Origin: Octopus sinensis
Taxonomy: Eukaryota
DNA: 64,000 nucleotides
Reading direction: 5' to 3'
Assembly: GCF_006345805.1 (NCBI RefSeq)
Contig: NC_043001.1
Coordinates: 93,868,001 to 93,932,000 of the forward strand
Shown here piece by piece: positions 2,071 to 58,150 of this stretch. A program made the translations under genes and the position numbers. Each line of letters opens with the position of its first letter. Position 1 is the first letter of the stretch. The notes under the pieces are model-generated. The model was not told where the DNA came from. It worked only from the letters and a program-made list of their open reading frames with translations, and searched no databases.

Positions 2071-2319
2071 TTGGTAGAAATGGTAAGACAACAAAAGAAT
2101 GAAAGAGAACTCGATATTATGTAAATAGAGGAATTTATCTGTAAATATAATATGTGACAGTTATTCGGTAGCCATGATAAAACTCCGAGTTTTGGATGTT
2201 ATGGCATTTTTTCCGATGGCCAGATAACTGAGGAGATGGCAGCGTGGATTTGCACCCCGACATCTGAATCTCGGAGCTTTATCATGGCTACTGAATAATT
2301 GTCACATATTGCATTTACA
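2071..2319. mobile_element. (TA)n-embedded fold-back element, Penelope-like remnant with hammerhead motif
   Basis: 60-bp inverted arms 2140-2199 / 2260-2319, unpaired tail 2071-2139, TA-rich microsatellite on both sides. Confidence 0.7.
2223..2283 (+). ncRNA. Degenerate minimal type I hammerhead ribozyme
   Basis: Stem I GATAA(2223-27)/TTATC(2279-83); core CTGAGGA 2228-34; stem II GATG/CATC; GAAT for GAAA at 2266-69; stem III CTCGGAG; the mirror arm supplies the canonical bases at mutated positions. Confidence 0.65.
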
Positions 2320-2368
2320 TATATATATATATATATATATATATATATATATATATATATATATATAT

Positions 2369-2622
2369 GTAGGTAGGTATCAATAAAATAAAACAGAACA
2401 CAAAGGATGTCGCGGTACACGTGTTTCAAGCTTTATAAAACAACTTATTCTTACATCAAGTATAAGAATATGATGTAAGAATAATTTGTTTTATAAAGCT
2501 TGAAACACGTGTACTGCGACATCCTTTGTGTTCTGTTTATTTCATTTGATTCATATATCCTCTCACCTCTGCTAATAGCTGGCATATACGGGGCTTACAT
2601 TTATCAATATTCACCCTGAATG
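2369..2622 (+). mobile_element. (TA)n-embedded fold-back element with partial hammerhead motif, Penelope-like remnant
   Basis: Arms ~2379-2458 / 2471-2550, 12-nt loop, tail to 2622; right arm reads TGATGT-AAG...CTT-GAAA-CACGTG-TA. Confidence 0.7.
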
Positions 2623-3439
2623 TATATAATATATATAATATATATAGATATATATATATATATATATATATATATATATATATATAATTAACGTTAATTA
2701 CAACATCCCTATTCCTGCGTAGGAGATGCCATTATATTTCCTCACTAAACTTCCTTACTCTTTTATCATGCATGTCTAATTTGGGCTCTTTATGGCTAAC
2801 CTTATTTCACCTCTAATGACTTGTAGCTACCCGGTATTTGGTTATGCCACCCTAATATCCTATGCAACCGTAATATACATATATACTCGTTATGCAACCC
2901 TAATAACATAATATCGAATTTACTGCATATAATATGATATACTATAAGATACTATAAAAGTATATTAAACGATTTTATAAATCAATACCGGGTGGGTTCT
3001 GATGCGTTAGCTAGCTACAATTTCTGAAGAATATCAGTAGACATAACCATAACAAGTTATTTCGCTTCATTATTGCATTATCGCATGGAAATATATCCAA
3101 TAAGTCTTCTTCAACGACTCCAAAAGAATATCTCTACGCGTACCAAGAAAGACATATCTGTCTCGCAAAACAAGCACAGCACGATGTTAAACACTTTAAG
3201 ATCGCAACAAAGAAAACCAAATCGACCTAAGTATAACTGAGGATCTCTCCTGCCAATCATGGATATTCATCATAACAAAGGCTAAATGATACACACTGAA
3301 CCGTCCCATACATAGGCCGAAAATGCTTCATCCTCAATAACAAAACACATAGTACAGAGCTCAGGTAAAGACTGACTATGGAGCACTGCTCCTACATATA
3401 TGACAGTACTACATGCTATAAAGCATAAACGATAAACAT

Positions 3440-3739
3440 CACCCTTTTCAAGCCTAGCCAGGCTCATGGGCCCTGTTTCCCGGTTTCTGTGGCGTTTATG
3501 TTCCCCCCAATTGGACGGGACGCTAGACCATCGCAGCGTTACTCAAGAAACAGGAAGAGAGAGTGAGAGAAAGTTGTGGAAAAAGAGTACAACAGGGGTT
3601 GCCATCCCCTGCCGGAGCCTCGTGGAGCCTTTTTAGGTGTTTTCGCTCAATAAACACACACAATGCTCGGTCTGGGAATCGAAACCGCGATCCTCCGACC
3701 GCGAGTCCACTGCCCTGACCACTGGGCCATTGCACCTCC
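3440..3739 (-). mobile_element. tRNA-derived SINE, family A, near full length
   Basis: Minus strand has A box (tggcccagtggtcagggc) and B-box-like ggtttcgattccc; body homologous to 13081-13335. Confidence 0.85.
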
Positions 3740-54049: not shown

Positions 54050-54440
54050 CACTGCTATAGTTTTTGTGGAAGAGATGCTAGATTATATCGACCCTCCGTC
54101 TTAGACTGGTCCATTCTTTTTTTCTTTTACATTTTTATCGGTTTCAGAAGCATAAAAACTGCTGCCGCGCCGTTGGCGGGATTTGAACTCAGAATTTAAG
54201 GGGACGTAATTATACGCTCCTAGGTATTTTATCCGGCGTTCTTTCGCCTTTGCCAGTTTTAAAACAAGTGAATTTAAATCCACTCCAGTACTTGATTGGT
54301 GGTACTTTAATTCATAGGCCCTCGGATTAAGGAAATGTAAAGTTGACCTCTGTGGTTTGGAGACAGGGTTCTTGAAGGGGACTTAATTACAAGGCACAAA
54401 CTACATTATCCGCCAGGACCTTATCAATCAGCCATGTCAA
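54050..54440 (-). mobile_element. Two degraded SINE family C copies
   Basis: gattatatcgaccc...ggcgggatttgaactcagaa and ccagtacttgattgg...aaagttgacctc. Confidence 0.65.
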
Positions 54441-54819
54441 ATAATAATATTATTAATAATAATAGATGATAGTAATAATAATAACAGCAACGGATTTAAA
54501 AGTCGTTATAGGGAGTGCTTGAGATGGTTACGCGGATTTGTTTCACAAAAAATGGAATTACTATTATTGTTAGTAGTGATAATATTTACAATAATAATAA
54601 TAATAATAATATAATAATAATAATAATAATAATAATAATAATGTTAGTAATAATCGTAAAGAAACTATTACTACTAATAATAACAATAAGAACAACGATA
54701 TAAATGTTTGATTTTAAAATATTAAAATTGATTTTATATCGATAGTAGTCCTTATATGAAGAAAAGAGATGCTAGATGAAAACGTGAGGCTAATATCTTT
54801 GCTTGTAACGTCGAGAAGG

Positions 54820-55312
54820 AAATGATGAAGATGAAGATGATGATGATGATGGCAATGAAAAAGGATGATAATAACGACGATAATAATGATGACCTCCACG
54901 ACGACGGTGATGATGATGTTGGTGATGATGATGATGATGATGATGATGTTGTTGTTAATGATGAGGATGAGGATGATGATGAACATGACAATAATGATAG
55001 CATGTCGCGGACGATGACAATGACAACGACGACGACGATGATTATGATGATGATGATGATGATGATGAAAAAGACGATGATCATAACGTCAATAATGAAG
55101 ATCATTAGGGCGTCGATGATGATGATTACGACGAGAACGACGACTTGTATGATGAACATGGCAGTGATGATGATGATGATGATGACGACGACGACGACAA
55201 TGACGATAATGGCGATGATGATGATGATAATGATGATTATGATGATGGATGATGATAAAGGACTACGACGACAACGATGATAATGACGATGATGATGATG
55301 CTGATGGTGATA
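54820..55312. repeat. Degenerate (GAT/GAC)n trinucleotide tract
   Basis: Direct reading. Confidence 0.9.
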
Positions 55313-58000
55313 AACATGTCATTCATTTTTTTTTTTTTTGTTTTCGTCACATTTCAAATAAAGCAAAAAAAAAACAAGTGGGAAATGAAAAAAAAAAACT
55401 TAAATAAATAATTAAATAAATAAATAAATTTTTTTTTTCCTCTCACCTCGCCTGTCGTATATGCCTGTCTGTATGTACGTATGTCCGTGTTTGCCGCTGC
55501 TGCTGCTTCTGTTGTTGTTGTTGTTGTATTTGTGGTTGTTTTTATATTCGTTGTTTATTTTTTTTTTACATCATCATCATCAACACCATCATCATTTATT
55601 ATTATTATTATAATTTTTATTATTTATTTATTATTATTATTATTATATATTATTTTTGCGTCGTGGGTAGAGGGTATTATATTTTATTTTTATTATTTTT
55701 ATTACTTTTTATTTTTTTTTGTTTTTTTGGAATGCTTGACTGCGTGCGTGTATATGTTCAGTATGTGTGTATAAGTATGTATGCACATATACACATAGAA
55801 ATGTATATGTGTGTACGTGTGATTTACATGTATGTTTGTATGCTCGTCTGCGTGTGTGTGTGAGTGTGTGTCTGTAACGTGAAGGGATTGTTTATACGTG
55901 TACGCGTGCGTGTGTATATATATATGTGTGTGTAAATATATTTATGTATCTGTATATGTGATTTTTGTTTGTTTTGATAGGTGTATTTATATATAATTAT
56001 ATATATATATATATATAATATATATATATAATATATATATGTGTGTGTGTATATATATTTCCTTTAAAGCAGTAGTAGTAGATAATAGTAGAAGTAGTAG
56101 TAGTAATAATAATAGTAGTAGTAGCAGTAACTGTGATAATAATAATAATTGTTGTTTCTCTTGTTGTGTTGTTGTTGTTTTTTTTTTCCCCTTTCACATG
56201 GTAAAGTTGGCCTGCTTATCCCTTAACGTACAGCTCCTGCGGCCTCCTCCTGTTACATCCATGATCGACTGCAACGCATTCTTCCCATTAGCATCTGTCG
56301 GAGTCTTCTTCCTCCCCTTCGTTGCTGGACGCCTAGCTCCGCCTCCTTTCACTCTTTTCCCCCTCGCTTGCAATCCTACGCTATCTTTTTCCTTTCTCGA
56401 TTCGCGATAACTCTCTCTCTCCCCGTCGCTCTTCACAACCTCTTGCTCTCGCTCTCTCCTTTTCGCTTTTCACACTCTCTTTCACTCTCTTTCTCACATG
56501 TATAGTCTCTCTGTCTGTCTGTCTGTCTCTCTCTCTCTCTCTCTCTCTCCCGATGTCTCTTAGTGCCTCTATCTTTGTTCATCTCTCGTCTTCTCTCTTC
56601 CTGTCTTCCTATCTTTCCCACTGAAAACGGCTTACATGCTTTGCTCTCCCTGTATCTTTTTCTCTTTCTCTCAGATTTCCACAATCTGTCTCTCTATATA
56701 AGATTTCCCTCACAATCGCTCTCTCTCTCTCTCTCTCTCTCTCTTCGTCTCTTATAGTCTCCATTCTCATGTTCTCTCTCCTCTCTCTCTCTTACTCTCC
56801 GTCTCTCTGTGCGTCTCTTTCGATACACACACATATGTATATATGTATGTATATATGTATATATATGTGTATCTATGTATGTATACACACACACACACAC
56901 ACACACACACACACACACACACACATATATATATATATATATATATATATATATATATATATAACATAGGTATATAATTTATATAATGTGGTTTTTCTTT
57001 CCCTCACATTTCCACAATCACTCTCTCCCTATATCATATATCGCTCGCAATCTTTCTCTCTCTCTCTGTCTGATAGCGTCCACGCTCATGTCCTCTCTTT
57101 TTCTCACGCTTTTTTTTTATCTCTAACATAAACACACTAAAAATTCTCTGTCTCTCTAGTTATATATCTCACGTTTTCACCATAAATCACCGCCCATGTC
57201 TCTCTCTCTCTGTTTCTCTCTCACGCACACCGTTTTTGTTCGATACACATTCTAGTGTTCTCCCTTTCAATACATACATACATACATAAAACATCCATTC
57301 ACACATTCATATTTACATACATACATACATACGTACATACATACATACATACATATGTACATACATACATATATACACTCATCAACACACACACATTCGT
57401 ACCGGCATACACACATAAACACCAATGTCTTTTAATAATTATACGTACACACAGCTAGGTATATATATATAACTTAGTTTTTATTTCAGTATATAACTAT
57501 TGGGCACCCTCTAAAAATCTCTCTTCTCTCTTTTATTATTCTTCCCTTTATTCTTACTCATTTCCTTCTATTTCTCTTTATGAATCCTTTTGTATTAAAA
57601 ACCCTATCATTTTCTCGCACTTGGTGCGACTCGGGGTATACACAAACACACACAGACAGACAGACTTACACACACACACACACACTGGGCCTTACGCATG
57701 TAGTCATTCCCCACAGAAATACATAAGCACAAACACACATACACATTCATACACTAACTCACACCTCTCCTGTAGCTATTTGTCTCTTTTCCTTTCTGTC
57801 TTTCTCAGTTAACGTTCTCACCTCAGGAGAAGAGTGGATTTTCTCTTTTACCTACGTCCGCTTCTTATCTCTCGCTTTCATTCTGTCGGTGTGACTATTC
57901 CAAGTCTCCCCTACTCTCTCTTTCTGACTGTCTCTTTTGAATACACATGTATGTACGCATATATATATAATATATATATAGTATATATAATATATATATA

Positions 58001-58150
58001 CTTTATTTAAAAGCAGCACGGGAATGTGAAACTCCGAGTAACAGGTTTTGTTGAATTTCTACTGCTTTTAAATAAAGCATATTACTTCTACCCCTGGTAT
58101 TTTGAGTACTCTTTTTTCCACCTTGTTTCACATTTATGTGTTTACTCCGG
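58001..58150 (+). mobile_element. (TA)n-embedded short fold-back element with hammerhead 3' half, Penelope-like remnant
   Basis: Arms 58001-58018 / 58060-58077; GAAA-CTCCGAG-TA at 58028-58040; tail to 58150. Confidence 0.65.

Follow-up and report, generated by a model that had tools for sequence, protein, structure and literature searches.

Penelope-like elements (PLEs) leave a published insertion signature that combines a tail, an inverted copy and a bias towards TA targets (PMC8557442). Their Hydra clade has an entry from octopus, namely Hydra-1_Obim from Octopus bimaculoides, listed in the supplement of Craig et al. 2021 (PMC8557442). For Poseidon PAc of Anolis two internal start sites of the reverse transcriptase (RT) delimit the tail; both target strands are cut and extended there, and ribozyme cleavage is dispensable (Frangieh et al. 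2024, PMC11167929). In Drosophila Penelope, an initiator and a downstream promoter element (DPE) lie in the pseudo-long terminal repeat (pseudo-LTR), shortly upstream of the ribozyme (PMC2377424, PMC3846280), and the non-LTR retrozymes have been proposed to derive from PLE pseudo-LTRs (PMC7229834; bioRxiv 10.64898/2026.07.22.740005). Here we describe five short inserts, each of a different hammerhead ribozyme family, in a 64,000-nt stretch of the Octopus sinensis genome (GCF_006345805.1, NC_043001.1, positions 93,868,001 to 93,932,000; hereafter the window), together with their relatives in the 2.72 Gb of genome searched.

We give a probability of roughly 80% to the reading that these inserts are 5′-truncated, mostly head-to-head ends of hammerhead-bearing elements that were placed in (TA)n by target-primed reverse transcription, and that the short copies of the families with coding parents stop at a fixed 5′ limit, here termed the wall, which is likely a transcription start. 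The assignment of the elements to their classes we consider almost certain. The features of the inserts are as follows, with coordinates of the window and signed distances counted from the hammerhead cut site:

2071..2135, minus strand: family 1 tail, between both fixed 3′ ends (~+45 to +110), ending on (TA)n
2136..2199, minus strand: family 1 short tailed arm, truncated in stem II, with a mutated 3′ core half at 2181-2193
2201..2321, plus strand: family 1 tail-less arm from ~-75, with a whole but mutated type I hammerhead (CTGAGGA at 2228-2234, GAAT-CTCGGAG-CT at 2266-2278), read as a Hydra-clade PLE end
2369..2459, minus strand: family 2 inverted arm, truncated inside the long stem II, with the 3′ core half at 2416-2427
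2471..2622, plus strand: family 2 tailed arm, read as the pseudo-LTR of a Hydra-type PLE; GAAA-CACGTG-TA at 2502-2513 without CUGANGA, tail at ~2552-2622
8741..8988, minus strand: family 3 single tail-less arm, of a 480-bp tandem unit, with CTGACGA at 8920-8926 and GAAA-TCGG-TT at 8885-8894
12368..12589, minus strand: family 4 tail-less arm (3′ end ~+195), truncated in stem II, with the 3′ core half at 12565-12576
12599..12721, plus strand: junction filler, a 124-nt, 99% copy of 13945-14068, preceded by a short local duplication
12727..13040, plus strand: family 4 tailed arm, of a young 546-bp tandem unit, with GAAA-CGTACG-TT at 12740-12751 and tail at ~12945-13040
13945..14068, plus strand: flank DNA matching the filler of insert 4
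58001..58018, minus strand: family 5 very short inverted arm, ending 3′ of the cut site
58019..58152, plus strand: family 5 tailed arm from -22, with GAAA-CTCCGAG-TA at 58028-58040, without the 5′ core, tail at ~58084-58152

Hammerheads and parent elements

The initial annotation of the window had listed five mutually unrelated inserts, and all five are present near the coordinates it gave, every one adjoining (TA)n, with a best blastn E value across families of 0.22. Four are indeed asymmetric hairpins with a single unpaired tail each (~65, 71, 96 and 68 bp). Insert 3 is likewise associated with (TA)n, but it has neither tail nor inverted arm and really ends at ~8988 rather than 8945. Every insert is multicopy and belongs to a high-copy family of its own: the first-look searches returned 3242, 1635, 1791, 1474 and 2000 candidates for families 1-5 (40 scored per family), figures that are not to be equated with copy numbers. 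The window holds no evident protein gene, its long frames being simple repeats. In insert 4, the filler templated by flank DNA 0.9 kb downstream is likely repair filler, as judged from the match.

The hammerheads of the inserts had been proposed from a half-motif, GAAA followed by a short palindrome and UH. The palindromes sit where they had been placed, but the half-motif is not enriched in the window (16 found versus 11.4 +/- 3.3 expected from 60 shuffles). A hammerhead descriptor finds no intact type I hammerhead in the window; complete cores are present in longer genomic copies. Inserts 2, 4 and 5 break off inside stem II and the 5′ core with the CUGANGA half is missing from them, insert 1 has GAAT and a C replacing U16.1, and in insert 3 stem II is damaged; an Rfam scan of the window had no hammerhead family among the best 150 of its 389 matches. 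Hence, the hammerhead reading of the inserts rests on the complete type I cores of other copies and not on those in the window. Among the rows from longer copies, CTGAAGA is found in 31/33 of family 2 and CTGACGA in 27/29 of family 3, while family 4 shows CCGATGA (36/37) and GAAACGTACGTT (73/73), and family 5 CCGACGA in 47/78 rows; in family 1 CTGAAGA is the commonest form (44/106 rows), the loose anchor used there having also caught unrelated DNA. The stems are retained despite divergence: stem III of family 2 reads CACGTG, CATGTG or CATATG (22, 23 and 8 of 68), keeping its self-complementarity as the letters change, and the two stem II variants of this family are both intact in pairing. In family 5, stem III has a varying unpaired middle base. 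These ribozymes had been called minimal, a term that in Cervera's sense does not apply, as all five families possess a self-complementary stem III of 4-7 nt and a stem II region of 10-66 nt.

Families 4 and 5 have a fixed C at core position 4 (CCGANGA), whereas 5b, a sister subfamily of family 5, has CTGATGA (28/30); a C at this position is a natural variant with lowered activity (PMC3088659). The genome carries many more hammerhead families than five: at least five further ones with palindromic stem III (CTCGAG, CATATG, CAATTG) were chance finds in 46 loci, for instance at L184:2621-2678, L213:6037-6116 and 6560-7198, and L217:6521-6916 (fetched loci bear L numbers).

The proposal of a TA-targeting, hammerhead-bearing system of Penelope type with inverted partial repeats is supported by ORF (open reading frame) continuity, cores and TA flanks. 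The description of the inserts as stand-alone mini-elements is wrong, as families 1, 2 and 5 continue into an ORF; the suggested extension to RT and GIY-YIG frames succeeded for these three, with a 711-aa ORF in 5b and fragments elsewhere. Going by the motifs of these frames, we read families 1, 2 and 5 as ends (pseudo-LTRs) of Hydra-clade PLEs. Walking upstream from families 1 and 5 leads to a GIY-YIG frame ~0.9-1.2 kb before the ribozyme, which has CxCX5C, CxxC and CxH and is without CCHH; searches with this frame gave 25,264 first-look candidates, of which 123 were scored and several have frames above 700 aa, and a homologue search gave 1710 relatives.

The clearest order of parts comes from 5b, of which 20 copies were fetched (L447-L466): hammerhead, tail, ATG (176 nt past the cut site), the 711-aa ORF, ~1 kb of untranslated region (UTR), a second hammerhead and TA, in a unit of 3325 nt. 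A Pfam search of the 711-aa ORF gave no match and its motifs were read directly, these being RWK, DKT, YRDDG, a GIY-YIG-type YTG, CxxC and CxH; across the copies RLRWK is present in 14/20 and SDKT in 18/20, along with CxxC and CRH. This subfamily is abundant and inserts in (TA)n despite an altered CxCX5C linker. Insert 5 shares 95.5% identity with the 3′ end of the ORF-bearing copy L386 and 91% with 5b, and in family 5 proper ORF fragments are continuous with the repeat. RT and endonuclease fragments lie upstream in 5/5 family-1-bearing loci, from which the RWK/DKT region was not recovered. In L470 a broken ORF of 35% identity (DKT present) lies between family 2 repeats, and in L467 endonuclease fragments precede such repeats. 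The L467 parent (G000 C1188) additionally has a long in-frame Asn-rich insert between the RT thumb and the endonuclease. The proteins of the three families share 34-38% mutual identity. Pfam GIY-YIG hits were considered as parents of these families and rejected, the hits being PLEs of the Neptune/Nematis type.

Families 3 and 4 are of a different kind: family 4 consists of 546-bp units in tandem arrays of at least three, with copies 98% alike, and family 3 of 480-bp units in partial tandems. No ORF is linked to them in 30 and 60 loci, apart from stray hits. As tandem, non-coding repeats with one type I hammerhead per unit, they fit non-LTR retrozymes, the lower bound of whose unit length is ~170. 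Head-to-tail joints in contigs of four presumed-RNA runs are explained equally by tandem DNA and were not used either way.

Other PLEs were noted as well. L217 and L223 hold a second PLE of the Neptune/Nematis type (775 aa), whose hammerhead has GTAC as stem III and lies ~500 nt past the stop; the 3′ end of the element is ~205 nt past the cut, a family-4-like geometry that makes it a candidate partner of family 4. A young PLE family with copies 98-99% identical (L211 at G000 C1:207474100-207479000, L212-L214, L219-L221) has a 781-aa ORF with RT and GIY-YIG, a CX2-5CxxC linker and an upstream 479-aa frame. Its 3′ repeat contains repeated ATTGG and TGACGT motifs; the family has a fixed end on (TA)n and, by the descriptor, no hammerhead. 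The family 3 repeats beside this PLE in L211 were considered as its pseudo-LTRs and rejected, since they belong to a 1.15-kb flank duplication that is absent from the other copies. Near-identical local duplications of flank plus element (L211:1-1153 and 5934-7091; L154/L156, L168/L169, L280/L281) are either recent tandem duplications or assembly artefacts.

Fixed 3′ ends and the 5′ wall

Loci were sampled by the tail alone, to avoid selecting copies by fold point. Hairpin- and core-selected samples, which are biased on the 5′ end, were excluded from the tests of ribozyme-end rates and of the wall; the family 4 end count pools tail-selected and core-selected sets. Query copies and same-locus or duplicated loci (L151, L155, L156, L169, L227, L257, L266, L280, L496) were dropped before counting.

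Downstream of the ribozyme, the copies of each family have their 3′ ends at two fixed sites, both of which adjoin TA: at ~+37-53 and +108-118 in families 1, 2 and 5, at ~+155 and +245 in family 3, and at +195 and +292 in family 4 (57 of 62 ends at these two). The tail is the stretch between both ends, usually present on one arm and missing from the other. An inverted arm, usually tail-less, occurs in 18/26, 17/29, 22/27 and 23/29 tail-selected loci. TATATA stands beside the tail in 73/82 loci (23/26, 26/29, 24/27) versus a background of 11.8%. Together with 5′ truncation and partial tandems, the two fixed 3′ ends and the inverted copy constitute the insertion signature of endonuclease-bearing PLEs. 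One possible target-site duplication was seen (L306), (TA)n flanks being such as to mask these.

At the other end, arms that pass the ribozyme in the coding families terminate in one 20-nt window in 15/19 cases for family 1, 18/19 for family 5 and 5/7 for family 2 (simulation p 0.0007, 0.0007 and 0.007, respectively), while the element itself continues for kilobases beyond; family 1 ends beyond -250, mostly simple-repeat artefacts, were ignored. The consensus of the initiator is YYANWYY and that of the DPE is RGWYV. The outer edge of the wall is no more than a few bases away from the A of a YYANWYY match, at -85 in family 1, -284 in family 2 and -46 in family 5, and in family 2 RGWYV follows at +28 in 11/15 copies. 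A fresh sample of 5b, drawn after the idea of a wall had been recorded, shows 25 of the 36 arms reaching -36 to end at -36 to -48, with the A of the motif at -47 and two ends exactly on it. By contrast, among the upstream repeats of ORF-bearing copies 1/9 stop at the wall (Fisher p 0.002 versus short arms). Families 3 and 4 show no single wall, the family 3 sample being a biased one. A splice acceptor at the family 1 wall was considered and rejected, as no exon sequence is shared beyond it. The wall is very probably real, and we lean towards its being the transcription start.

Competing explanations and meaning

A number of points weigh against the overall reading. Folding one copy per family gave z values of -2.2 to +0.5, part of stem I being absent in two of the five cut-outs. 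On the side of the parents, CxCX5C is intact in 3/20 copies of 5b with its second C replaced in 17/20, no full-length element of family 1 was present among the fetched loci, and the parent link of family 2 comes from 2/7 fetched loci. On the side of the wall, YYANWYY is loose (0.011-0.029 per nt) and was recognised only after the walls of families 1 and 5 had been seen; DPE-like RGWYV matches number 5/11 in family 1 (+27/+28), 0/32 in family 5 and 0/22 in 5b; and a cap-derived extra G at the wall is not evident by eye. The family 2 wall is drawn from seven primary arms (10/20 in a pooled, partly biased set), the -36 to -48 window was chosen after viewing, and the 1/9 includes L452, set to -46 by eye (alignment: -60). 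Finally, the wall coincides with a small 6-bp hairpin in family 2 and with T-runs in families 1 and 5.

These last features, as well as slipped T-tracts at family 5 junctions, are what would be expected if the wall were an RT pause or fold-back intrinsic to the sequence (a U-run, a small hairpin or self-priming by stem I) or some other RNA processing site, an explanation that would leave the class of the elements unchanged. We regard it as unlikely: arms without an inverted partner stop at the same place (L162, L138, L235), the three walls have in common an initiator-like motif and no structure, and 8 of 9 upstream repeats of ORF-bearing copies cross the identical sequence, which speaks against the sequence itself acting as a block.

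The initial annotation had further suggested that the point of truncation and inversion is tied to the ribozyme, as might happen through self-cleavage with RT run-off at the cut, or through structure stalling the RT. All four hairpins of the window do fold in the ribozyme, and some junctions match via its palindromes or a stem I repeat (L258, L270, L233, L271), but this does not carry over to the families at large: 8/191 ends (3/44, 0/46, 4/49, 1/52) lie no more than 3 nt from the cut site, no excess there. The rate of arm ends inside versus outside the hammerhead is 0.78, 1.17 and 1.81 in families 1, 2 and 5 (p 0.45, 0.65 and 0.06), the last value corresponding to 32/49 ends in the ribozyme, and in family 4 10/74 ends fall in a ribozyme zone covering 13.7% of the unit, as by chance; families 1, 2 and 4 show no excess. 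Moreover, the family 2 wall lies ~200 nt upstream of stem I, and insertion by the anole PLE is unaffected by catalytic mutants (PMC11167929). The ribozyme is just 40-110 nt away from the fixed 3′ ends, and this is why short copies often end in it. As a general rule, a ribozyme-set breakpoint is largely refuted, and as an account of these copies it is very improbable.

Inheritance of the wall from a few already-truncated masters transcribed from their flanks would account for a fixed 5′ limit without a promoter; yet junctions vary between copies, no flank sequence is shared beyond the wall, and the wall recurs in subfamilies 5 and 5b, which are 91% alike, making this explanation highly unlikely. 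That the hairpins are DNA transposons of the Tc1/mariner type targeting TA, similar to miniature inverted-repeat transposable elements (MITEs) and with ribozyme motifs by chance, agrees with their inverted arms, TA flanks and chance-level half-motif in the window, but can practically be dismissed given inner junctions that vary the arm length, outer ends at two fixed, unequal sites in place of equal terminal inverted repeats, tandem arrays, complete hammerheads in all five families and the continuity with RT and GIY-YIG ORFs, which refutes it.

Returning to target-primed ends that stop at a transcription start, the following mechanism may be envisaged. Reverse transcription would be primed at nicks in (TA)n, the endonuclease cutting both strands by analogy with what was observed in vitro for the anole PLE. 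The RT would start at two internal sites of uncleaved or re-ligated RNA, such a template being proposed because genomic copies run uninterrupted across the hammerhead cut site, and the two complementary DNAs (cDNAs) would be joined at variable ends through short matches or filler. As the start sites would also be present in the 5′ leader that directly precedes the ORF, priming there would run off at the 5′ end of the RNA after 150-400 nt and yield the short hairpins. Long copies and tandem arrays would come from tandem read-through or circular templates lacking such a 5′ end, the circles possibly being made by the ribozyme. Mobilisation of families 3 and 4 would take place in trans, with multimeric or circular RNA as the source, and neither shows a single wall. 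We put forward this two-template model, with leader-primed synthesis on uncleaved transcripts running off at the cap and full-length copies stemming from tandem or ribozyme-circularised templates, tentatively and at slightly less than even odds. If true, there would be thousands of hairpins with promoter and ribozyme whose 5′ ends map the transcription start of each family, genomic stubs would be a read-out of PLE promoters and of both template classes, and the job of the hammerhead would be to make an end-free template for full-length transposition.

The elements are further members of described classes, and the added value is mechanistic, concerning the origin of truncated, inverted PLE insertions and the role of the hammerhead. 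The large young families allow both ends of each cDNA to be counted, and the counts speak against the ribozyme cut as the setter of the breakpoint and towards a fixed 5′ end of the RNA; they also point to long copies arising from a different template pool. Such hairpins are easily mislabelled as MITEs or microRNA precursors in repeat annotation. In the main text of one octopus repeat annotation (PMC13282606) the word ribozyme does not occur. A literature search yielded no account of short PLE copies whose ends fall at a start site, which is weak evidence of absence as it covered neither subscription papers, Repbase/Dfam nor most supplements.

Three further repeats of the window may be recorded. 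Positions 13073-13310, directly after insert 4, hold a dispersed repeat with a tRNA-like box start (GGTTCGAATC), probably a short interspersed nuclear element. A strong inverted repeat at 19695-19936 has a non-microsatellite core between (CA)/(TG) runs; it belongs to none of the five families and does not contain the hammerhead half-motif. Inverted repeats of 92-101 nt at 39599-39745 and 40316-40422, 93-97% complementary, lie ~600 nt apart.

Relation to known systems

The parents of families 1, 2 and 5 resemble the Hydra clade in having a single ORF with RT followed by a C-terminal GIY-YIG without CCHH, in the RWK, DKT, CxCX5C, CxxC and CxH motifs, and in the hammerhead, (TA)n targets, partial tandems and inverted truncated copies (PMC8557442). 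They differ in unit length, being 3.3-3.9 kb with ~1-kb 3′ UTRs against generally less than 3 kb, and in the tail, which is 65-70 bp against 30-40 bp for PLEs (PMC8557442). Pseudo-LTRs are clear here and none are described for Hydra-1_Obim, with which the comparison is by description only (PMC8557442). The available text of that study makes no mention of a 5′ wall.

Likeness to PAc extends to two adjacent RT start sites downstream of the hammerhead that define the tail, an AT-rich target cut on both strands and uncleaved RNA as the template (PMC11167929). PAc belongs to another clade, and its ORF starts inside the ribozyme, whereas here it starts 176 nt past the cut (PMC11167929). The main text of that report does not say what becomes of priming in the 5′ repeat.

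Families 3 and 4 are similar to retrozymes as tandem, low-GC, non-coding repeats with one type I hammerhead per unit (PMC7229834; Li et al. 2026), but their units of 480 and 546 bp compare with a length of up to ~400 (PMC7229834; bioRxiv 10.64898/2026.07.22.740005). Unlike retrozymes, they show tails, inversions and TA targeting of the PLE type, family 4 has a U4C core, and they are known here from DNA alone.

With the PLE hammerheads of Cervera and de la Pena 2014, the families share type I topology, a large helix II, a bulged base, a palindromic helix III and opposite-strand pairs 100-700 bp apart, mostly in truncated PLEs (PMC4209133). They are not of the helix-III-less minimal form (PMC4209133); further differences are a stem II region of up to 66 nt and, in families 4 and 5, the fixed U4C core.

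In the Penelope elements of Drosophila virilis and Adineta vaga, the portions of the articles at hand do not link short-copy ends to the start site (PMC2377424, PMC3846280). The parallels are otherwise close: an initiator- or DPE-like promoter in the pseudo-LTR near the ribozyme, head-to-head inversions, palindromic junctions and capture of host DNA and, in the Adineta elements, Asn-rich inserts as in the family 2 parent L467 (PMC2377424, PMC3846280).

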